From IMG/VR virus record IMGVR_UViG_3300029873_000373: 17,506 nucleotides of DNA; one strand, 5' to 3'. Below the pieces are notes generated by a model. That model saw only the letters and a list, made by a program, of their open reading frames with translations, was not told the DNA's origin and made no database searches. Numbering within the stretch: the stretch's first letter is position 1; each line of letters starts with the position of its first letter. Shown here piece by piece: positions 6,786-17,506 of this stretch. The translations under genes and the position numbers were made by a program. Source of the DNA: a virus (taxonomy: Duplodnaviria > Heunggongvirae > Uroviricota > Caudoviricetes).

Positions 6786-6976
6786 GGACGCACCTCCGCC
6801 GTAGTTACGTATTTAACCGGGCTACCTTTCATTGAGATGGTTTCACACATCTCTGCCGCTTTCAGTTCCGCTGTTTTTCTGGATTTATAGCGACGGTGCC
6901 AGACAGATACATCCGTGCGAACTGATACATCGTTTCTGTATTCCGTAGTGGAGATGATGATTTCGTAACTAATCAT
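6782..6976 (-). CDS. Hypothetical small phage protein (64 aa)
   Basis: ATG 6976 preceded by AAGGAGGT; ATGA overlap with the Rha-like gene stop. Confidence 0.45.
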   Translation of the reverse strand: MISYEIIISTTEYRNDVSVRTDVSVWHRRYKSRKTAELKAAEMCETISMKGSPVKYVTTAEVRP

Positions 6977-7833
6977 GGGCGAACCTCCTTGTCAGAACCA
7001 TTCAGCCTGGAATCAACAAGTGCAGCGCCAAAAACAGCATCACCAACACGGTCGTACAGTTTGCTAGCCAGCGGAGATTCAACGGCCTTAAGCATTGGAT
7101 AAAGCTGGCTTGTCCAGATTTGATGGATTTCACGCAAATGCAGGTATACGCCTCTGGCGTTTCGTGCGACAGCTGACATATCAGACGCATCGGCACCTGA
7201 TAAACTCTTCTCCATCAGGTTAAAGGCGTTGATGTATGCCTCTTTGAACCGGGCAGCACGTTTACCAGTGAAGCCCATGGCAAGAAACGCAAAACCGTCG
7301 CGGGTGATTTGGTAACAAGGGAGCTTGCGTGTACCACCGTTCGGTTGATTTACCGAAATCGATGTCTCCGCAAAATTGCGGGCACAAAACTCAGGGGAAC
7401 AATCCAGAGTGCGGATCTTTTTCAGCACATCGTCATGACGCTTGGAGAAGAAGTTGGCAACAGCCAAAGAAGTGGTAACGGCCTGGCCGTTGTCAATGGT
7501 GATTTCAGGTTGAGTGAGGGCTGGGATCGTAGCCATGATGGCAGCCTCCGTTGACAGTGAAAAACTTCCACCACCGGAAACGCCAATTTCACTGGTGGTG
7601 AACTGGACGGGGTTGGCGTAACCGGCGTCAACGGAGACCGGCGCACCTTTCGGTGCCCCCGCCCAGCCCACCATAATCTGGATGTGAGCAAATGCGGACG
7701 ATAAAAAAGACGCTGGCGCGTCATACATCGCCGTTGACAATTTCAGGACGCCAATCCCGGCACCCGCTTTATAAGGTGCGGAGACAGTGTAACGTCCCGG
7801 AATTGCAGAATCAATATGCTGGTGGCGGATCAT
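6973..7833 (-). CDS. Rha-family phage regulatory protein with a ~99-aa N-terminal module of unknown function
   Basis: Rha-like core ITIDNGQAVTTSLAVANFFSKRHDDVLKKI ... TRDGFAFLAMGFTGKRAARFKEAYINAFN; ATG 7833 has SD GGGAGGTG. An in-frame internal ATG at 7536 with SD GGAGG lies exactly at the module/Rha junction. Confidence 0.7.
   Translation of the reverse strand: MIRHQHIDSAIPGRYTVSAPYKAGAGIGVLKLSTAMYDAPASFLSSAFAHIQIMVGWAGAPKGAPVSVDAGYANPVQFTTSEIGVSGGGSFSLSTEAAIMATIPALTQPEITIDNGQAVTTSLAVANFFSKRHDDVLKKIRTLDCSPEFCARNFAETSISVNQPNGGTRKLPCYQITRDGFAFLAMGFTGKRAARFKEAYINAFNLMEKSLSGADASDMSAVARNARGVYLHLREIHQIWTSQLYPMLKAVESPLASKLYDRVGDAVFGAALVDSRLNGSDKEVRP
7537..7833. repeat. Copy 1 of a ~300-bp duplicated coding module (N-terminal domain of the first Rha paralog)
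   Basis: Near-identical DNA to 8193-8492, e.g. shared CCCGCTTTATAAGGTGCGGAGACAGTGTAACGTCCCG and GACGATAAAAAAGACGCTGGCGCGTCATA. Confidence 0.85.
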
Positions 7834-8492
7834 AGGTGCACCTCCCGTTGATTACGACGGAACGCGGAGTGACCCTGGACGGTTTCAGCCTCATGGAATG
7901 CTTCAATACAGCTCTCGTAGTACCGCATTGTGCGCAGACTTAACCCAAGCTGAAGCATCATCAGACCATCAAGGGTGATGTAATAACCACGCAGGGAGTC
8001 ACCGTAGATGTGATAAGTACCCGGTATGAAATTGCGGGTAAAAAACCCGCGTGAGCAGTTCAGATACTCGATTTTGTCAACGATGTTCTGGTGCATGCGC
8101 TTGAAATGGCAGGCAACATGCAGGGAGAAAATAACGGCCTTGCCGTTGACGACTTCGATTTTTAGGAATGGGGAAGTTAGGACAGTAGCCATGATGGCAG
8201 CCTCCGTATGCAATGGATAACTTCCACCACCGGAGCTGCGAAACTCATGGGTGGTGAACTGAACAGGGTTCGCAGTACCGGCGCATACGGAAACCGGCGA
8301 GCCTTTCGGCTCCCCTGCCCAGCCCACCATAATTCTGGCGTGCGTGAGCGCGGACGATAAAAAAGACGCTGGCGCGTCATATATCGCCGTATGCAATTCC
8401 GGGCTGCGACCCCCGGCACCCGCTTTATAAGGTGCGGAGACAGTGTAACGTCCCGAAATTGCAGAATCAATATTTGGTCTTGAAATGATCAT
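7830..8492 (-). CDS. Rha-family regulatory protein paralog (divergent Rha domain) carrying the same N-terminal module
   Basis: N-terminal 100 aa about 75% identical to the adjacent gene; Rha-like IEVVNGKAVIFSLHVACHFKRMHQNIVDKI. ATG 8492 has no SD; internal ATG 8192 has GGAGG and may be the true start. Confidence 0.6.
   Translation of the reverse strand: MIISRPNIDSAISGRYTVSAPYKAGAGGRSPELHTAIYDAPASFLSSALTHARIMVGWAGEPKGSPVSVCAGTANPVQFTTHEFRSSGGGSYPLHTEAAIMATVLTSPFLKIEVVNGKAVIFSLHVACHFKRMHQNIVDKIEYLNCSRGFFTRNFIPGTYHIYGDSLRGYYITLDGLMMLQLGLSLRTMRYYESCIEAFHEAETVQGHSAFRRNQREVHL
8193..8492. repeat. Copy 2 of the ~300-bp duplicated coding module
   Basis: Same as above; differences are substitutions only, many at third codon positions of the minus-strand frame. 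Confidence 0.85.
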
Positions 8493-8576
8493 ATAGCTGC
8501 TGATATCTTTAGAACTGTTCTTGGATGTTTCGGAGCCGTTTTATGCGAAACAGCTCCCCGTTATTGATGTTGAGTG

Positions 8577-8601
8577 AGCCGGGTTACTCCCGGCTTTTTT
8601 T
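8577..8601 (+). terminator. Intrinsic-terminator-like hairpin plus T7 run, oriented for the plus strand, between minus-strand genes
   Basis: AGCCGGG-TTACT-CCCGGCT followed by TTTTTTT (8595-8601), abutting the stop of the 8601-9308 gene; on the minus strand the hairpin is preceded, not followed, by the A/U run. Confidence 0.5.
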
Positions 8602-9308
8602 CACCGCTGCCAACCAATAACCTGAAATAACCCCATTTTCGGGTGATACCAGCGAGTCCCTCGCGGTTCTGCTTCCTCCATAATCCGATAAAAAGCAGCC
8701 ATAAACGGTTCCACAGCAACAATTGCGCGACGTGACAACAATCCGTCCGGCGTCATGAACTCATGGGTGTCTGTAGGAATCTGATAGGCGTTCACCAGAT
8801 TGCGGCATTTATCATCTGACAAACCGGTTTTTGCTTTCAGTTGGCGATATCCGGCATAGCCCTCACGAATAGTGCCCTTTTTAATTTGCTCGACTGTTTC
8901 AGCAACGTGGCTGACTTTTTCTTCCACCTGAGTGATCCGTTTCTGTTGGCGAACGGCTTCAAGAGCCATCGCGGCAACCATTTCGATTTCGCTCATTGGC
9001 TTACGGATCTGTTCTTCCAGTTCGCGCCAGCGATCTACCAGGCGAGCTGTGAATTCAGGACAGAGCTGTGCGACGACAATGATGCTGTCGCGCTTACCTC
9101 GTTCACCTTCGAATACATACGCGCTAGAAAATCGGCGAGGCCCAAGTGATTGTTTATTCTCAATTTCCACAGTCTGTGGAAATTGGATGATTCCCTTTTT
9201 AGCCAGTGTTTCAATAGTTCTCTTAACACTATCTGGTCGGCTTCCCACCAGCTCTGCGATCTCAACGCTGGTCATGGATGCTTTGCCGTTAAAAATTGCG
9301 GTGTTCAT
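8601..9308 (-). CDS. Rha-family phage regulatory protein (antirepressor-like)
   Basis: 235 aa; N-terminal MTSVEIAELVGSRPDSVKRTIETLAKKGII fits the Rha-domain pattern; coiled-coil-like middle; SD AGGAGA before ATG 9308. Confidence 0.7.
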   Translation of the reverse strand: MNTAIFNGKASMTSVEIAELVGSRPDSVKRTIETLAKKGIIQFPQTVEIENKQSLGPRRFSSAYVFEGERGKRDSIIVVAQLCPEFTARLVDRWRELEEQIRKPMSEIEMVAAMALEAVRQQKRITQVEEKVSHVAETVEQIKKGTIREGYAGYRQLKAKTGLSDDKCRNLVNAYQIPTDTHEFMTPDGLLSRRAIVAVEPFMAAFYRIMEEAEPRGTRWYHPKMGLFQVIGWQR

Positions 9309-9549: not shown

Positions 9550-9622
9550 GATACTTTGTTATCCAACGATGTTAACCATAGGAACCCAAAGTATCAAGAA
9601 ATTCTGTTACTTTAGTATCAAC
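9550..9622. promoter_or_regulatory. Rightward-operator/promoter-like region (divergent PR/PRM analogue) with repeated operator motif
   Basis: Motif CAAAGTATCAA at 9587-9597, TTTAGTATCAAC at 9611-9622 and inverted GATACTTTG at 9550-9558. Candidate minus-strand promoter: -35 TTGATA (rc of 9592-9597), 17-bp spacer, -10 TAACAT (rc of 9569-9574). Confidence 0.5.
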
Positions 9623-9643: not shown

Positions 9644-10300
9644 ATGAAGTCTTTAGGTGAACGTCTCATCAACGCACGGCAAAAAGCTGGGTTAACACAA
9701 GATGCGTTGGCTAAAAAAGCTGGGGTCACCAGAGTTGCAATAAGTAAAGCCGAGCAAGGCCTTACAAAAAGTTTCAACGGTGACACCCTTTTTAAAGTTG
9801 CAGCTGCACTGCGGTGTTCACCGCAGTGGCTTCAGAACGGAGATGAAAAAGATAAGCATTGGGAAAATAATGTTAAGAGCTGCCCACAGAGAGACACAGC
9901 ACACTCTTACCCTGTAATTAACTGGGTTCAGGCAGGATTATTCGCAACTTCTGGTGATGACTACAACATGTATGATCAGGATAATTGGAGGCATTCTGTA
10001 AAATACGCTGGTGAGAGGGGGTTCTGGCTGGAAGTGCACGGAGACTCAATGACTTCGCCCGTAGGAATAACATTTCCTGAAGGAATGTCGATCCTTGTCA
10101 ACCCAGATAAAGAAGTTTTTTCAGGGTGTTACGTCATCGCCAGAAAAAAATCCACCAATGAAGCAACATTCAAAAAATATATTTCTGACATGGGAAAGGC
10201 GTTTCTAAAGCCCCTTAATCCACAATATCCAATCATAGAAATGGACAATGATTGCGAAATAGTAGGTGTTGTGGTTGATGCCAGATGGGATATTTTCTGA
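9644..10300 (+). CDS. cI: CI-like prophage repressor (XRE-family HTH plus LexA/S24 peptidase-like C-terminal domain)
   Basis: 218 aa; SD GAGGAGAAG before ATG 9644; HTH LINARQKAGLTQDALAKKAGVTRVAISKAEQG; S24 catalytic context GDSM ... ATFKKY; divergent from the early-right operon. Confidence 0.9.
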   Translation: MKSLGERLINARQKAGLTQDALAKKAGVTRVAISKAEQGLTKSFNGDTLFKVAAALRCSPQWLQNGDEKDKHWENNVKSCPQRDTAHSYPVINWVQAGLFATSGDDYNMYDQDNWRHSVKYAGERGFWLEVHGDSMTSPVGITFPEGMSILVNPDKEVFSGCYVIARKKSTNEATFKKYISDMGKAFLKPLNPQYPIIEMDNDCEIVGVVVDARWDIF

Positions 10301-10305
10301 CCAGA

Positions 10306-10333
10306 CACAAAACACAAAACACAAAACACAAAA
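10306..10333. repeat. Perfect heptamer tandem repeat (CACAAAA)x4
   Basis: Four exact 7-bp units directly after the cI stop codon and before the leftward operator motif. Confidence 0.9.
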
Positions 10334-10338
10334 AGAAA

Positions 10339-10386
10339 CCAAAGTATCAAAAATCACTTGCCACGACTTGATACCTTAGTTACCAT
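10339..10386 (+). promoter_or_regulatory. Leftward-operator/promoter-like region (PL/OL analogue)
   Basis: Same operator motif as the rightward region: CCAAAGTATCAA (10339-10350) and inverted TTGATACCTTAG (10368-10379). Candidate promoter -35 TTGCCA (10358-10363), 17-bp spacer, -10 TACCAT (10381-10386). Confidence 0.45.
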
Positions 10387-10417
10387 AAAACAAAGTTCGT
10401 AACTGAGGTATCATCTC

Positions 10418-10921
10418 ATGATCAATAAAGCTACAACTCTTGACTGTCTCGAAGAACTGAAAAACCTCGGCAGCCTCATTACACTAATAGCAAAAGCAAC
10501 ACCTGATGCTACGCTCTCTAGCGATATAGAGTCATGCGCAGGACTGGCATGGGATATGACAAATAGCATATCCAGAAAGCTATCGTCAGCAATGCTTTTA
10601 CAGAACAAAAATTCTGCAATCAACAACCGTCTTCGCACCCAACGCGAAGCCTGCGGCTTAACAACCGCCGAACTCGCCAGGCTGCTCGATCTCGATGAAG
10701 AAATCATCATTCAGTGGGAGAGCGGAGAGTATGAACCAACCATCAGTATGCTTATCCCACTGGCAAATATTCTTGGCTGCGATCCGATGTGGCTGTTAAC
10801 TGGCGAGGTTACTCCTCCGGAGCAACCAAAAAGTGAGGAGCAGCAACACCATGACGCATCTCAACAAGTTTGCCCCTTATCTCGCGAAGCTCTTCTGCGG
10901 AAGAACCAATACCAATGGTGA
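10418..10921 (+). CDS. XRE-family HTH protein with ~70-aa N-terminal extension, in the position lambda N occupies
   Basis: 167 aa; SD TGAGGT before ATG 10418; HTH LRTQREACGLTTAELARLLDLDEEIIIQWESGEYEPTISMLIPLANILGCDPMWLLTGE; no arginine-rich N-like motif. Confidence 0.6.
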   Translation: MINKATTLDCLEELKNLGSLITLIAKATPDATLSSDIESCAGLAWDMTNSISRKLSSAMLLQNKNSAINNRLRTQREACGLTTAELARLLDLDEEIIIQWESGEYEPTISMLIPLANILGCDPMWLLTGEVTPPEQPKSEEQQHHDASQQVCPLSREALLRKNQYQW

Positions 10922-11049
10922 CATAATCGCCGCTTCGCCCTTCAAGGTACATGCGAACATTTTTATCAATCATTGCGGAAACAGTCTCAATATGAAAACA
11001 CTTCTGAGACTCGCTATATAGCAGAACATATAAGTCAGCTGAGGAAGCC

Positions 11050-11415
11050 ATGAAAAAGTTCGAAAACATAACTGTTCTCCATGTTGATGACTTTGATTAT
11101 ACAAACCCGGAACTTCTCCCGGAGGTTGTAAAGGCAATAGATGTTGCCGATATAGTGATTAGAGAAAAGAGAATTGTCAAAAACAGGCTCGCATGCACTT
11201 CAGGAGCAATGACAGAAACAACCTCACAGCAAGATAATTACGAAGGCATTTGCCTGGAGCCTGATTCATTTGCAATAAATGTTTATCATTTATTGCATGC
11301 AACACAGGTATTACATATGTCCAGTAATCACGAAACGAAAACACTCGGCAGCGAAATTCTGAATTTTGCATGTGAGTATACAAAAGCTGCTGCCGAAAAA
11401 GAATTAGCGCAATAA
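11050..11415 (+). CDS. Hypothetical protein (121 aa), AT-rich accessory gene
   Basis: SD GAGGAAG before ATG 11050; about 35% GC; no recognisable motif. Confidence 0.6.
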   Translation: MKKFENITVLHVDDFDYTNPELLPEVVKAIDVADIVIREKRIVKNRLACTSGAMTETTSQQDNYEGICLEPDSFAINVYHLLHATQVLHMSSNHETKTLGSEILNFACEYTKAAAEKELAQ

Positions 11416-11493
11416 CAACAAATATGCCCTGAACGTTTATTGCGGTTTTATCGCCGGGGATTGTTACAACCTTAATCCACAGGAGGCTTTATT

Positions 11494-11607
11494 GTGACTT
11501 TTATAAAGAATATGGCATCACACAAGACCGCCTGCCTTATTGCACAATACGGTGAAAATTACATGCATATTGCCTGCTTATTTCTGCGTAAAGCATACGG
11601 GAGATAA
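11494..11607 (+). CDS. Candidate small ORF (37 aa) with perfect SD, absent from the ORF track
   Basis: AGGAGG, 7-nt spacer, GTG 11494; stops at TAA 11605-11607 just before the next gene's start. Confidence 0.3.
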   Translation: MTFIKNMASHKTACLIAQYGENYMHIACLFLRKAYGR

Positions 11608-11609
11608 TA

Positions 11610-11798
11610 ATGCATCAGAAAACAGCAGAACACGAACAAACCAGAGTATTGCTGACCATCAAAAACGGGAAAGTAATATTCATTCGCCATGTTCATGACG
11701 ATGAACTTGTAGGAAATCTTTCAACATTCCTGTTTATTGCAGAAAAGGCAGGATATGACGTTATTGCACCAGCAGATGAAGATGAAGATGAGGAATAA
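11610..11798 (+). CDS. Hypothetical small protein (62 aa) with acidic C-terminal tail (PADEDEDEE)
   Basis: SD GGGAGA before ATG 11610; highly acidic C-terminus. Confidence 0.55.
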   Translation: MHQKTAEHEQTRVLLTIKNGKVIFIRHVHDDELVGNLSTFLFIAEKAGYDVIAPADEDEDEE

Positions 11799-11803
11799 AT
11801 ATC

Positions 11804-12385
11804 ATGCAATACGATGAATTCCAGGCTGAAGCAACAGCCAATGGTATACGAACTGGCAGTATGACGATTGATTATCACGACGCCATACGTCGTCTGGATG
11901 CCGGAGAATTCGATACTCCTAATGTGCGAGGTTTACGTATCCTTCAGTGTCTGGCGCAAGCCGACGAAGCAGGATTACTGGGTAAACTTCCGGTTGAGAT
12001 GAAGGTTGCTCAGTGGCGATGGTTGTATGTGACGACATTCATCAACGAAGAAGAAGACAAGAACGGCACAATTGATATCCTGAATGAACACGGAACAACT
12101 GAACACGCCGTGGTATATAACGGGATGTATGGGTTTATGACGATATATCCCGGCCCCATTCGATTTGCCTTACAACAGTATATTGAATGGAATTTAATTC
12201 AAAAATACGGCGAAGCTGAAGGAATGGGAAGAGCGCTGTTTCTTTATCAGAAAATGCTCACTACTTCCCCTGATAAAGGTTTCATTCTTTCAGATATGGG
12301 TCGAGAAGGGCTTGAAATCCTTCTGGATGAAATTATTAACGAAATGAATACTCATGGCATGCAATCCGAAACAGATATTAAGTAA
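11804..12385 (+). CDS. Hypothetical protein (193 aa)
   Basis: ATG 11804 starts 5 nt after the previous stop; no recognised domain. Confidence 0.6.
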   Translation: MQYDEFQAEATANGIRTGSMTIDYHDAIRRLDAGEFDTPNVRGLRILQCLAQADEAGLLGKLPVEMKVAQWRWLYVTTFINEEEDKNGTIDILNEHGTTEHAVVYNGMYGFMTIYPGPIRFALQQYIEWNLIQKYGEAEGMGRALFLYQKMLTTSPDKGFILSDMGREGLEILLDEIINEMNTHGMQSETDIK

Positions 12386-12395
12386 AAGGGACCAC

Positions 12396-12644
12396 ATGAC
12401 CGTTATCGAGTATATCCAGGAAAATCCAGATTGCAGTAGAGAAGATATATCCCTCGCACTTGGAAGAAGCGCAACTTCTATCAGTAATGAATTATCACGG
12501 TTATTGTGGAATGGGTTAATAGTACGAACTGGAGAAAAAAACAAAATGATTCTGTACTGCGTAAACAATCTGCCGTTTGGATACAGCAATCCCCTAAGTG
12601 TTATGTTCAACCAGTTACTTAAACAGGTAAGAAATGGCAACTGA
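12396..12644 (+). CDS. Small winged-helix-like DNA-binding protein (82 aa)
   Basis: SD AAAGGGA before ATG 12396 (track ORF starts upstream at 12354, inside the previous gene); HTH-like CSREDISLALGRSATSISNELSRLLWNGLIV. Confidence 0.55.
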   Translation: MTVIEYIQENPDCSREDISLALGRSATSISNELSRLLWNGLIVRTGEKNKMILYCVNNLPFGYSNPLSVMFNQLLKQVRNGN

Positions 12645-12924
12645 CTCACAACTAACCATAGAAACGGCCCTGAATGTCGGCCTGGCGCTCCTTGGTTATT
12701 TTTACATCGTGTTCTGCAGCGGACGGTGGCTGTCGCTGTTGTTCCTGAAAAAATGGAATAAACGCCGTAAGCAGGATGAACGCCAGAAGGCATTAGAAGC
12801 GTTCTATGACGCATTTGAGCTTAGCCGCATTGAACCAGGTACAACAGCCAGGATAGCGACAAAAGGCGACCTGATGATAGTGATGTTCCGACAGGAGAGA
12901 GCAGAGAAAGGGGAATCAGCATGA
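12634..12924 (+). CDS. Small membrane protein (96 aa, one predicted transmembrane helix)
   Basis: Hydrophobic segment ALNVGLALLGYFYIVFCSGRWLSLLFL followed by a basic stretch; overlaps both neighbours (coupling). Confidence 0.55.
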   Translation: MATDSQLTIETALNVGLALLGYFYIVFCSGRWLSLLFLKKWNKRRKQDERQKALEAFYDAFELSRIEPGTTARIATKGDLMIVMFRQERAEKGESA

Positions 12925-13661
12925 AATTTTCCAAATTTTCTGAGTTGGTGAATCGTATTTTGTCCAACAACCACAGCCATCGTCGCGATATGGATGTAAC
13001 GATCGTTGTTCATTCGCCTGGCAGCATTGGTTCAACACCCTCAGTTGAAGTTCAGTCAATTCACGCTGGTTTTGATTGGGATTCCGGGAAAGTGCTGATT
13101 TTCCCAGCACAGCCACTGACCACTCTAACACCAGAACAGATTACTGATATTACTGATAGTGTGCGCAAAGGTCAGTCCTGGCACGCATATCAGGAATACA
13201 AGAAGCATAAAGAGCAGTTGGAAAAATTATCGATTGAACTTGATGCCGCAAAACAGCGCATTGCAGAGCTGGAGGGTAATTTCACGGCGCTGGCAGCGGA
13301 GAATGCGGGAATAAAGTCTGCAATTCCAGAATCACGGGATATTGAAGATGACAATGACAATATGGATGACGTATCTCTCGCGGAAGACTTCGGGTTCAAT
13401 CATGCAATAGAACGGATGAGGAGACAGATACCTGAAACGCCAACCACTGATGCTTTCCTGGCTGAAGTCCGGGCGCAGGGGGTGGATGCTGCTATAGAAG
13501 CTGCAAAAAATCTGGTGGCCCAAGAATATGAGTATAAGGATTTCAAAGCGGCGCAGAGTGATTGCTGTATGTACCCTGGTTCAGACCTGGTAGGGAAGGT
13601 TGAAATGACTGAGTGGTTAGTTGACTTTGCTGCCCAGCTTCGCAAAGGAGGCAACCAGTGA
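12921..13661 (+). CDS. Hypothetical coiled-coil phage protein (246 aa)
   Basis: ATGA overlap upstream; central heptad-like region (KEQLEKLSIELDAAKQRIAELEGNFTALAAENAGIK) and acidic stretch. Confidence 0.6.
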   Translation: MKFSKFSELVNRILSNNHSHRRDMDVTIVVHSPGSIGSTPSVEVQSIHAGFDWDSGKVLIFPAQPLTTLTPEQITDITDSVRKGQSWHAYQEYKKHKEQLEKLSIELDAAKQRIAELEGNFTALAAENAGIKSAIPESRDIEDDNDNMDDVSLAEDFGFNHAIERMRRQIPETPTTDAFLAEVRAQGVDAAIEAAKNLVAQEYEYKDFKAAQSDCCMYPGSDLVGKVEMTEWLVDFAAQLRKGGNQ

Positions 13662-14143
13662 GCGAAATTAATTACCAGGCACTGCGTGAGGTGGCGGAAC
13701 GTGCAATTCCAGCAATGGAACGCCTGTTAATGTTGCCAGCTGATGATGACTTGTTAAGTGAACAGGAACTTAAAGATTACGGTGTGGATATTGATGCGCT
13801 CAACGCCTTCAAATTTCTGACCGGACCAGAAACCGTGCTGGCACTGCTGGATGAACGGGAAAGAAACCTGCAATACATCAAAAGCCGCGATCAGGAGAAC
13901 GAGGATATTGCGCTAACGGTAGGGAAGCTGCGCGTTGAGCTTGAAGCAGAAAAACAGCGGGCAAAAGTTCTATTTATGGAAAATGCTCGGCTTAAGTCAG
14001 GCATAGCCGGTCTGATACACCTCGGTATTCGATATGCAGATGTTGAGGTCATGAAAATTGCTGGAGATGCCCAGCTTTCTACCCCATGCACTGACAGCAT
14101 CATAAACAGCATTGCAACAGGCATTCGCATCAAAGGAGAGTGA
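13658..14143 (+). CDS. Hypothetical coiled-coil protein, possibly Ead/Ea22-like (161 aa)
   Basis: GTG start with strong SD AAGGAGG and GTGA overlap; the N-terminus MSEINYQALREVAERA recalls Ea22-like prophage proteins (recollection only). Confidence 0.55.
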   Translation: MSEINYQALREVAERAIPAMERLLMLPADDDLLSEQELKDYGVDIDALNAFKFLTGPETVLALLDERERNLQYIKSRDQENEDIALTVGKLRVELEAEKQRAKVLFMENARLKSGIAGLIHLGIRYADVEVMKIAGDAQLSTPCTDSIINSIATGIRIKGE

Positions 14144-14144
14144 T

Positions 14145-14660
14145 ATGGCGTTAACACACCACGAACTCTGTCAGATTGCGTACAAGTTCCTTAAGCGCAA
14201 CGGGTTCAAGGTTTGCTTTCATGACCGCTTTGTTGCTGTAACCAGTACCGGAGAACAGCCAGATGCTATGGGATTCAGAAATTCAGCATCATGCCTGATA
14301 GAGGCGAAGTGTTCTCGTGCTGACTTGTTGGCAGATAGAAAAAAGCGTTTCCGTAAAAATCCCTCACTTGGCATGGGCGACTGGCGATTCTTTATTAGTG
14401 AGCCGGAAATTATTTCAGTTGAGGATTTACCTCCCGGCTGGGGATTACTTCACGTTGTTAACGGAAGAGTACGGAAAGTACATGGATGGCCCAGGGGTAA
14501 TTGCTGTTGGGGTAATCCTGACGATAAGCCATTTACTGGGAATAAGCAGGTTGAATGCGATTACATGTTATCTGCATTAAGGCGCATGGAGTTGAGAGGG
14601 CACCTTAATGAAATATATGACGGTGTGATTGTTAATAAGAAAGAAGGAAACGCGGCATGA
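14145..14660 (+). CDS. Candidate PD-(D/E)xK-fold nuclease (171 aa)
   Basis: SD AAAGGAGAG before ATG 14145; motif arrangement GEQPDAMGF ... CLIEAKCSRADL resembles the PD ... ExK catalytic core of restriction-endonuclease-like nucleases. Confidence 0.5.
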   Translation: MALTHHELCQIAYKFLKRNGFKVCFHDRFVAVTSTGEQPDAMGFRNSASCLIEAKCSRADLLADRKKRFRKNPSLGMGDWRFFISEPEIISVEDLPPGWGLLHVVNGRVRKVHGWPRGNCCWGNPDDKPFTGNKQVECDYMLSALRRMELRGHLNEIYDGVIVNKKEGNAA

Positions 14661-15900: not shown

Positions 15901-16137
15901 ATGGGCAATGTGATTCAACTGGCTCCCAATGAATGGGTTTGTGAAAGCGTTCTTATCGCAATTACCGGGCTCAAACCAGGCACAATTCTTCGGGCCCGGA
16001 AAGAATGCTGGATGGTTGGAAGAGAGTATATTCACGTATCACCAGACGGTAATCCAAAGCCTTCCAGTGAATGTATGTATAACAGAAAAGCAATAGATGC
16101 CTGGGTCGCCTCAATGAAAAACAAACAACCCAGGTGA
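15901..16137 (+). CDS. xis: Excisionase-like protein
   Basis: 78 aa directly upstream of the integrase; SD GAGG before ATG 15901; sequence type (...EWVCESVLIAITGLKPGTIL...GREYIHVSPDG...) matches enterobacterial prophage excisionase-like proteins. Confidence 0.75.
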   Translation: MGNVIQLAPNEWVCESVLIAITGLKPGTILRARKECWMVGREYIHVSPDGNPKPSSECMYNRKAIDAWVASMKNKQPR

Positions 16138-16192: not shown

Positions 16193-17506
16193 ATGGATAA
16201 AGTCAAATATCCAACAGGCGTCGAAAACCACGGCGGCACATTACGCATCTGGTTTAATTTTAAAGGTAAACGTGTCAGGGAAAATCTTGGTGTCCCTGAC
16301 ACTGCCAAGAACAGGAAGATCGCCGGGGAACTGCGGACATCAGTATGTTTTGCCATCCGCACAGGAAGCTTTGATTATGCTGCACAGTTCCCTGACTCCC
16401 CCAACCTTCAGGCTTTTGGGGTAAGTAAAAAAGAAATTACGGTGAAGGAACTTGAAGAAAAGTGGCTGGATCTGAAACGAATGGAAATCTCTGCAAATGC
16501 ATTCAATCGCTATGAATCCGTTGCAAGAACGATGGTTCCGAAAATTGGAGGCAGTAGACTGGTGTCATCGGTAACCAAAGAGGAATTGCTGTATATCAGG
16601 AAAGATTTGCTTACCGGGTATCAGAATTCAACGAAAAACAAAGTAGCAGCAAAAGGACGGAGCGTCGTTACTGTAAATTATTACATGACGACAATCGCTG
16701 GAATGTTTCAGTTTGCTGCAGATCACGGTTACTTAGAAGCAAATCCCTTCCAGGGAATTAAGCCTCTTAAAAGAGCCAGGGCAGAGCCAGATCCGCTAAC
16801 TCGTGACGAATTTATTCGCCTGATAGATGCTTGCCGACATCAGCAGACGAAAAACCTGTGGTCATTGGCTGTGTACACAGGAATGCGTCACGGTGAACTG
16901 GTCTCCCTGGCCTGGGAAGATATCGATCTGAAGGCAGGAACAATTACCATCAGGCGCAATTATACGAAACTTGGTGAGTTCACTCTACCGAAAACTGAAG
17001 CAAGCACAAACAGGGTTGTGCACCTTATCCAGCCCGCTATCAGTGTCCTGAAAAATCAGGCTGAAATGACAAGACTGGGTAAGCAGTACAACATCAAGGT
17101 GCAACTACGTGAATATGGACGTTCAGTGAACCATGAATGTACTTTCGTGTTTAACCCTCAAGTGGTTAGAAAAAGCGAACAGGTAGGTTTTGTCTACAAA
17201 GTCGATTCTGTAGGTGACTCATGGGAAACAGCCATTAAGCGTGCAGGGATCAGGCATCGAAAGGCATACCAGTCACGACACACTTATGCGTGCTGGTCAT
17301 TATCTGCCGGAGCAAACCCAAGCTTCATTGCCAGCCAGATGGGCCATGCAAGTGCCCAGATGGTATTCAATGTATACGGAGCATGGATGACTGACAGCAA
17401 TGCAGAACAGATCGCAATGCTGAATCAGAAGCTGACAGATTATGTCCCAATGATGCCCCATAGTCACCAAAGTGACACCAGAGGCTTATTAAAATCAGTA
17501 AGTTAA
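16193..17506 (+). CDS. int: Phage integrase, tyrosine site-specific recombinase
   Basis: 437 aa; SD GGAGG before ATG 16193; catalytic-domain signatures (TGMRHGEL, SRHTYACW, ASQMGHASAQMVFNVYGAWM); ends with TAA at the window edge. Confidence 0.93.
   Translation: MDKVKYPTGVENHGGTLRIWFNFKGKRVRENLGVPDTAKNRKIAGELRTSVCFAIRTGSFDYAAQFPDSPNLQAFGVSKKEITVKELEEKWLDLKRMEISANAFNRYESVARTMVPKIGGSRLVSSVTKEELLYIRKDLLTGYQNSTKNKVAAKGRSVVTVNYYMTTIAGMFQFAADHGYLEANPFQGIKPLKRARAEPDPLTRDEFIRLIDACRHQQTKNLWSLAVYTGMRHGELVSLAWEDIDLKAGTITIRRNYTKLGEFTLPKTEASTNRVVHLIQPAISVLKNQAEMTRLGKQYNIKVQLREYGRSVNHECTFVFNPQVVRKSEQVGFVYKVDSVGDSWETAIKRAGIRHRKAYQSRHTYACWSLSAGANPSFIASQMGHASAQMVFNVYGAWMTDSNAEQIAMLNQKLTDYVPMMPHSHQSDTRGLLKSVS

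Follow-up and report, generated by a model that had tools for sequence, protein, structure and literature searches.

The window analyzed in this study is the whole stretch of 17,506 nucleotides of the virus record IMGVR_UViG_3300029873_000373 (Caudoviricetes), and the subject is the block of genes at positions 10418-12924, which follows the gene for a cI-type repressor. The block carries seven genes on the plus strand, named here A to G, and one gene on the minus strand, named here as86, which overlaps both A and B. What is modestly new at this locus is the un-annotated as86 and the conserved overlapping trio that it forms with A and B; the rest of the block consists of ordinary and highly mosaic accessory genes of the early left region. 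The features are as follows.

9644-10300, plus strand: cI-type repressor (helix-turn-helix (HTH) domain and S24 peptidase), directly upstream of the block
10337-10413, plus strand: candidate leftward operator and promoter (OL/PL), operator-like repeats around a promoter-like site, from consensus matches
10418-10921, plus strand: A, XRE-family HTH regulator of 167 amino acids (Pfam HTH_3; phrog_4739 over its full length)
10809-11069, minus strand: as86, protein of 86 amino acids (phrog_6104, E 1.4e-49)
11050-11415, plus strand: B, two-domain protein of 121 amino acids (phrog_5451 over its full length; phrog_4587 corresponds to the C-terminal half)
11152-11180, minus strand: candidate as86 promoter inside B, TTGACA (11180-11175), 17-nucleotide spacer, CACTAT (11157-11152)
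11494-11607, plus strand: C, 37 amino acids, GTG start with AGGAGG 8 nucleotides upstream
11610-11798, plus strand: D, 62 amino acids with an acidic tail of variable length (phrog_340, E 2.4e-21)
11804-12385, plus strand: E, conserved protein of 193 amino acids
12396-12644, plus strand: F, winged-helix (MarR-like) protein of 82 amino acids (phrog_1687)
12634-12924, plus strand: G, small membrane protein like DUF4752 and P22 EaF (PF15944, E 1.8e-40)
12921-14143, plus strand: two Ea22-like genes (Pfam Ead_Ea22, PF13935, E 3.8e-9 and 4.2e-31; RefSeq annotation)
15901-16137, plus strand: xis
16193-17506, plus strand: int

The seven open reading frames that a first-pass annotation, made from the letters alone, had placed on the plus strand were all confirmed, and the gene list was incomplete in that as86 on the minus strand had been overlooked. 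In pairwise codon comparisons with diverged homologues every plus-strand open reading frame, the 37-codon C included, was found to be under purifying selection, with ratios of nonsynonymous to synonymous substitution (dN/dS) of 0.07-0.47, and therefore A to G are real genes. A PHROG profile scan assigned all of the open reading frames except C to existing families. The earlier remark that none of the proteins other than the HTH protein could be recognized thus holds in so far as most of them have no known function, but G belongs to DUF4752 and only C is outside the PHROG families. Databases contain hundreds to thousands of copies of the block's sequences, almost all labelled hypothetical or with a generic domain name, and in the literature no paper was found that mentions DUF4752, the RefSeq accessions or phage PhiR49_2. 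Scans for RNA genes gave no tRNA and no match near any Rfam gathering score.

By its DNA similarity the window is a lambdoid E. coli prophage of the phiP27/PPyecE type. The 4.2 kb around the block is 87-92% identical to phiP27 and to the 'PPyecE' prophages that convert for Shiga toxin (Stx) 1 or Stx2, and it is 99% identical to PhiR49_2, a phage from ECOR13. In the E. coli chromosomes that match best, prophages share 98-99.6% identity with the segment 10300-13000 over 99% of its length; this segment was covered to at least 80% in 119 of 5426 genomes, and parts of it were present in 1024 of them. In JKHS016 the prophage lies at yecE, and the order of its genes is a LexA-like cI, the block, two Ea22-like genes, a few small genes, the excisionase and the integrase; the opposite arm of the prophage carries the replication genes and a Q-type antiterminator. 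In the window, cI, the operator- and promoter-like site, A to G, the Ea22-like genes, xis and int all lie on the plus strand in that order. The block is thereby placed between the leftward early promoter-like site and xis/int on the same strand, which is the position of an ea or exo-xis type region, and recognized families of such regions are present, G being of PF15944 and the next two genes of PF13935. Since the block comes right after cI and behind the operator-like repeats and the promoter-like site, it would be the promoter-proximal part of the leftward early operon. The description of the block as low in G+C is correct in that its G+C content is 43% (38.5-49.5% per gene) compared to 52.7% in the replication genes, but the cI/cro region is equally AT-rich (42% G+C) and the remaining left arm has 47%. 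Therefore the block is no compositionally separate island, and low G+C as the sign of such an island was rejected.

Between cI and A the 13-mer AAYYAARGTATCA occurs in three copies, at 10337-10349, 10369-10381 (minus strand) and 10401-10413, and these bracket a promoter-like site made up of TTGCCA (10358-10363), a 17-nucleotide spacer and TACCAT (10381-10386). Two further copies lie between cI and cro (9584-9617), so that five of the six matches in the window are inside these two regulatory gaps; the total count by itself is not significant (6 observed compared to 2.7 expected). Because the repeat copies bracket the promoter-like site and two more are in the cI-cro gap, a leftward operator and promoter between cI and A are plausible, and with them the earlier placing of the block downstream of a leftward operator, where lambda has N. 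No N-like match to PHROG or Pfam (nut sites were not searched for) and no match to the exo, bet, recT or erf families was found among the left-arm proteins scanned, in agreement with the first-pass annotation, and the first gene after the promoter-like site is the XRE HTH protein A and not an N module of the lambda type. Two other features of this gap were observed. Right after the stop codon of cI and before the operator-like repeats there is a perfect tandem repeat, (ACACAAA)x4.1 at 10305-10333, which is rich in C and A and poor in G. Through a 22-nucleotide inverted repeat at 10362-10420, 82% complementary, the promoter-like region could pair with the start codon of A and its Shine-Dalgarno sequence; as two operator-like copies in opposite orientation fall at the same place, the inverted repeat may reflect operator sites and not an RNA hairpin.

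A consists of an N-terminal extension (residues 1-70), an HTH domain (72-126) and a C-terminal tail (about 131-167), and its match to HTH_3 (E 3.8e-11, 43.3 bits compared to a gathering cut-off of 23) bears out the earlier call of an XRE HTH protein with an extension of about 70 residues. The dN/dS of the A core is 0.11-0.12. In the last 37 codons or so, which lie over as86, dN is higher than dS in the A frame, and the sequence from ASU11 has stops in that frame while the as86 frame is intact. The tail of A is thus unconstrained read-through across as86, which is a real antisense gene. The N-terminal part of A, up to about 10600, has been exchanged jointly with the immunity cassette. A has 138 amino acids in phiP27 and two further loci, in which the 3' part of as86 is replaced.

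The gene as86 is un-annotated in the RefSeq and GenBank records that were inspected, namely that of JKHS016, annotated by the Prokaryotic Genome Annotation Pipeline (PGAP), and that of PhiR49_2. It converges on A with an overlap of 113 nucleotides and its start overlaps that of B head-to-head by 20 nucleotides. When as86 was compared to its ASU11 homologue, 60 substitutions were found with the open reading frame intact and a dN/dS of 0.17. Its ATG at 11069 has GGAG 7 nucleotides upstream, and the core of its AlphaFold2 model has a predicted local distance difference test score (pLDDT) of about 90, with the order beta-beta-alpha-beta-alpha. Besides the candidate promoter inside B there is a second -10-like sequence, TATAAT, at 11101-11096 (minus strand); the TTGACA -35 sequence with a 17-nucleotide spacer to CACTAT or TACGAT is kept in the E. 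coli, ASU11, Salmonella and Citrobacter sequences. In B, the N-terminal domain (about residues 1-50) and the C-terminal 'X domain' (about 57-121) are each found alone in other prophages, and dN/dS is 0.13-0.25. PGAP annotates only the C-terminal 68 amino acids of B. A profile of the X domain matches the N-termini of other alleles of A, those of ASU11 with E 1.7e-12 and those of four prophages whose immunity region is different with E of about 3e-8.

This arrangement is not confined to E. coli. In Salmonella and Citrobacter prophages, next to different repressors, as86 homologues that are 62-68% identical lie in a like context: the convergent neighbour is an A-like HTH gene (30-46% identical) that overlaps as86 by about 100-120 nucleotides, and a B-like gene of 121 codons (31-33% identical) diverges from it with a start overlap of exactly 20 nucleotides. 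A further locus has the same geometry with a convergent overlap of 59 nucleotides, and in ASU11 the convergent overlap of A and as86 is only about 11 nucleotides. Thus, the length of the as86/A overlap varies, and the 20-nucleotide head-to-head overlap of as86 and B is identical in every locus in which it was measured. Since the two starts overlap in this way, the Shine-Dalgarno sequence of each gene lies within the first ten codons of the other, and across both translation starts the RNAs from opposite strands would complement each other. A probable explanation is that A, as86 and B are a conserved regulatory trio that works as a small switch. A full HMMER search placed as86 in a wider set of proteins of 60-110 amino acids (372 clusters at 50% identity) with the consensus VLLWSxSQxCFHIET...DY and without a Pfam family. 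In one member of this superfamily the domain is fused to an HTH_3 (XRE HTH) domain, and two distant relatives in low-GC phage contigs are co-directional with their neighbours in replication modules beside helicase and primase genes. When distant relatives were looked for by DNA pattern in the collection, one pattern gave none and a second mainly returned the same prophage family.

C has a dN/dS of 0.07 relative to its phiP27 counterpart at 70% amino-acid identity and is annotated in Stx1 phages; the PHROG and PADLOC scans gave no family match. D ends in PADEDEDEE, the acidic tail that had been noted before, which is coded by the hexanucleotide repeat (AGATGA)x3 at 11774-11791. As database variants of D have 60, 62, 64 or 66 amino acids, the tail changing in steps of two residues, this suggests that slippage in the repeat alters the length of the tail. 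Homologues of D are present in the same operon in phiP27, ASU11 and prophages of Klebsiella, Salmonella and Citrobacter, and D has no match in Pfam or the Protein Data Bank (PDB). D was also considered as a fragment of a larger anti-repressor, for which there were weak matches to the C-terminal parts of anti-repressor PHROGs; no larger relative was found in the loci that were fetched. E has about 458 homologues in the Enterobacterales and beyond, and in every locus inspected it lies between the repressor and xis/int. It was found in the repressor-to-integrase operon of Klebsiella KPP5665-2, Aeromonas AsXd-1, E. coli ASU11 and Salmonella and Citrobacter prophages, and in most of these loci D-like genes are upstream of it. 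The AlphaFold2 model of E from 40 sequences is confident (pLDDT 89), and no convincing relative of it was found among solved structures; E has no Pfam family. The name 'polyprenylphenol hydroxylase-related' protein that some records give to E was not supported. In three loci, of Klebsiella, Aeromonas and Citrobacter phages, the E homologue is preceded by a conserved pair of genes, one for an arginine-rich protein of about 72-76 amino acids and one for a protein of about 140 amino acids; this pair is absent from the window, where D adjoins E.

F and G had been read as a translationally coupled pair of a regulator and a membrane effector. The features of the two genes were borne out: the last 11 nucleotides of F overlap the start of G, and G has one hydrophobic segment in its hydropathy profile (about residues 9-38), followed by KKWNKRRK. 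That F is winged-helix-like is supported by its match to the phrog_1687 'MarR family' profile (E 1.3e-24 over the C-terminal half of the profile), but its Pfam scores stayed below cut-off (MarR_2, 22.9 bits compared to 27; HTH_24, 19.8 bits compared to 21.9). Its dN/dS is 0.25. G matches DUF4752 over practically its full length (137.3 bits compared to a cut-off of 27, profile positions 2-83 of 84). When all of the window genes were scored against 80 viral contigs with a gene for a G relative, none of A to F was present in 45 of them, and the upstream neighbour of such a lone G was an Ea22-like gene (at least 23 loci), a 3'-5' exonuclease-like gene (15 loci) or an HD-domain-like gene. The tblastn matches to G came from Stx phages, VT2-Sakai among them, from P22-like phages, which carry it under the annotation EaF, and from BTP1, the P1-like D6 and IncY phage-plasmids; those matches for which annotation is listed are mostly beside Ea22-like genes. 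In addition, G is chimeric in the 100-bp identity profile. Its 5' half travels with A to F, whereas its 3' half from about 12800, together with the first 400 bp or so of the Ea22-like gene that follows, shares 96-100% identity with unrelated prophages that do not carry A to F, which places a recombination junction inside G. F-like genes about 45% identical to F occur in early operons of P88-type (P2-like) phages beside an Ea22-like gene and with no annotated DUF4752 neighbour. A conserved F-G pair was thus rejected on co-occurrence and junction mapping, and the distribution of its homologues indicates that G belongs with the downstream Ea22-type cluster and is not the partner of F. A protein with two winged helices that is encoded upstream of a DUF4752 gene elsewhere was considered as a relative of F and had no detectable relationship to it.

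Identity profiles in 100-bp steps against 83 related loci gave at least five recombination junctions, placed at about 10600, 10790-10960, about 11200, about 11450, about 12390 and about 12800. The junction at 10790-10960 is the cassette of the as86 3' part, and that at about 11200 is where Stx1 phages retain only the C-terminal half of B. The component genes do not co-occur as a unit across genomes, as those of a defence system would. The block is a patchwork of individually exchangeable genes and not one cassette.

Two neighbouring regions contained further observations. The gene at 14145-14660 encodes a protein of 171 amino acids (phrog_9263/631, no Pfam match) whose D...ExK-like motif (DAMGF...CLIEAKC) hints at a PD-(D/E)xK nuclease fold, and its counterpart in JKHS016 is frameshifted. 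In the rightward arm on the minus strand (6973-9308), three Rha/Ash/anti-repressor-like genes follow directly after the cro-like gene (8601-9308, 7830-8492 and 6973-7833), and no canonical cII was evident among the genes after the cro-like gene there.

We consider it likely that the block forms the promoter-proximal end of a leftward early operon without N in a phiP27/PPyecE-type prophage, and that it is made up of conserved, selected and separately exchangeable accessory and regulatory genes. Once the operator is free of cI, upon induction or infection, the plus-strand genes would be transcribed along with the Ea22-like genes, xis and int, and their products may adjust early regulation and host physiology in the way of the lambda exo-xis and P22 ea genes. 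The exo-xis and ea22 genes of lambda and of Stx phages belong to the early transcripts and bias the choice between lysis and lysogeny (PMC3824215, PMC7093339, PMC8614690). By analogy an early regulatory or accessory role is the most likely one for the genes of the block. Given that as86 converges on A and that its ribosome-binding site is complementary to that of B, transcription of as86 and of the early operon would be mutually antagonistic, and as86 would be favoured while the early promoter is repressed.

Several points weigh against this explanation or parts of it. The promoter and operator calls are consensus matches only, and the role of the genes is argued from position and analogy. No intrinsic terminator was predicted between cI and A, and therefore the block may be expressed in lysogens by read-through of the cI transcript. 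The candidate as86 promoter scores below the threshold of the scan, and its -35 sequence lies inside conserved codons of B (VKN), so that its conservation could be due to the coding constraint of B alone. Likeness of the N-terminus of the window's own A to the X domain of B was not detected (no BLAST match; hhalign probability 2%). Finally, because the distant as86 relatives are co-directional in replication modules, the antisense arrangement would be specific to one clade.

Among the other explanations, it is possible, although unlikely, that one or more of C, D, E and F are anti-defence or host-takeover cargo that neutralizes host defence or repair at lytic onset, in the manner of Ral and Gam of lambda or Abc of P22; for any single gene this is compatible with the accessory-operon explanation. 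The position of C to F early in the operon behind the early promoter, the mosaic gene content with its fast turnover, the variable acidic tail of D and the wide distribution and conservation of E, which has no recognizable enzymatic or DNA-binding fold, are all in keeping with such cargo. What argues against it is that none of these proteins is similar to any characterized inhibitor and that conservation of D and E between genera is strong (dN/dS about 0.15), unlike the rapid diversification often seen in an arms race; moreover, the only neighbours that have been studied experimentally, Ea22 and the exo-xis genes, affect lysogeny and not defence. A bolder reading of the trio, which we regard as unlikely, is that it is an undescribed switch beside the immunity region of many enterobacterial prophages, with a role in the lysogen or as a gate on the leftward early operon, that as86 founds a superfamily of small early phage proteins outside Pfam and that E has a fold so far unseen among solved structures.

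The first-pass annotation had put forward the whole block as one horizontally acquired module for defence, exclusion or anti-defence, and this was not borne out, in view of the junctions within the block and of the scan with PADLOC-DB v2, the kind of hidden Markov model check that it had named, in which no block protein matched a system-specific defence component. A gave only generic HTH matches (RmrA, capH, HTH_VI) and F only winged-helix matches (CARF/CasR C-termini); B, C, D, E and G gave none, and as86 gave a marginal one (Cas11a, E 0.03). Matches to characterized lambdoid proteins for all members of the block, which by the annotation's own account would have refuted the idea, were not obtained. 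A narrower form of the idea is that F regulates or senses and G is the effector of a defence or superinfection exclusion system, or that as86 excludes phages when it is expressed in lysogens. The 11-nucleotide overlap of F and G and the nature of G, a small membrane protein with a basic and probably cytoplasmic juxtamembrane stretch, would suit the first form, and the second would be suited by the fact that as86 is the sole gene oriented for expression while the early promoter is repressed. However, apart from the lack of a PADLOC defence family, G occurs without F in 45 of the 80 loci and has a junction within it, the F-like genes elsewhere have no annotated DUF4752 neighbour, G is of the P22 EaF type that is common beside Ea22-like genes in several types of temperate phages, and the as86 form is hypothetical. 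Also, F and G lie 2 kb into an operon that is probably repressor-controlled; because the plus-strand genes are behind an operator-controlled early promoter they would be expected to be repressed in a lysogen, and would therefore be ill-suited to a prophage defence system. We thus consider defence or exclusion to be very unlikely. Least probable is a toxin-antitoxin-like addiction pair with A as the antitoxin or repressor and as86 or B as the toxin, to which the tight overlap of the genes and the weak matches of the A HTH to HipB- and MqsA-like antitoxin models could point, since those matches cover the generic HTH only and lie far below the curated cut-offs (20-25 bits for the NCBIfam antitoxin models compared to 62-335), type II pairs are normally co-directional and co-transcribed whereas A and as86 converge, as86 and B match no toxin family in the family scans, and as86 relatives occur in phage replication modules without an HTH partner.

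With the accessory-operon explanation the analysis gives a corrected gene map for a family of prophages that includes Stx1- and Stx2-converting phages and adds to it a selected antisense gene. The overlap of A, as86 and B beside the immunity region is a candidate for an extra layer of lysis-lysogeny control, and this is relevant to the induction of Stx prophages. The proteins as86, D and E belong to families without Pfam coverage or solved-structure relatives and could be given priority in function screens. While a new defence system beside cI would have been a valuable find, what the evidence points to is accessory genes of temperate coliphages.

When the block is compared to known systems, exclusion genes of the RexAB/SieB type resemble it in being next to the immunity repressor and in involving a membrane protein. 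However, RexAB is co-transcribed with cI upstream of the operator whereas the genes of the block are beyond the operator and promoter, and no family match to RexAB or SieB was found in the block, G being 2.3 kb downstream of cI and of the EaF family. The exo-xis region of lambda and the ea region of P22 (Ea22, Ead, EaF) are closer: they too lie between the leftward early promoter and xis/int, and they too consist of small, non-essential-looking genes with mosaic exchange, the likeness being carried by G (DUF4752/EaF-type) and the two Ea22-like genes next to it. The operon differs from those of lambda and P22 in that no N, cIII, kil, exo/bet/gam or erf was found among the left-arm proteins scanned, and because these are absent the accessory genes begin right behind the promoter; nor did the Pfam and PHROG scans match A, as86, B, C, D or E to a lambda or P22 family. 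Direct homologues in unchanged order are present in phiP27, where A corresponds to L10, B to L08, D to L07 and E to L06, all of them annotated as hypothetical, and the Stx1 and Stx2 'PPyecE' prophages have corresponding genes with the same annotation. phiP27 differs in lacking F and G and in a replacement of about 480 bp at the 3' part of as86, and the Stx1 phages differ in having a version of A with two HTH domains and only the X-domain half of B. Antisense or convergent control is known in temperate phages from the OOP RNA of lambda, which acts against cII, from sar against ant in P22 and from the face-to-face promoters of coliphage 186. These differ from as86, which has no sequence similarity to them, encodes a conserved protein of 86 amino acids (dN/dS 0.17) and is known here only from its sequence. 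What as86 shares with them is an opposite-strand transcript that would run antisense to the 3' end of the gene for an early regulator and to the site where translation of the following gene begins, an arrangement that could allow mutual interference.

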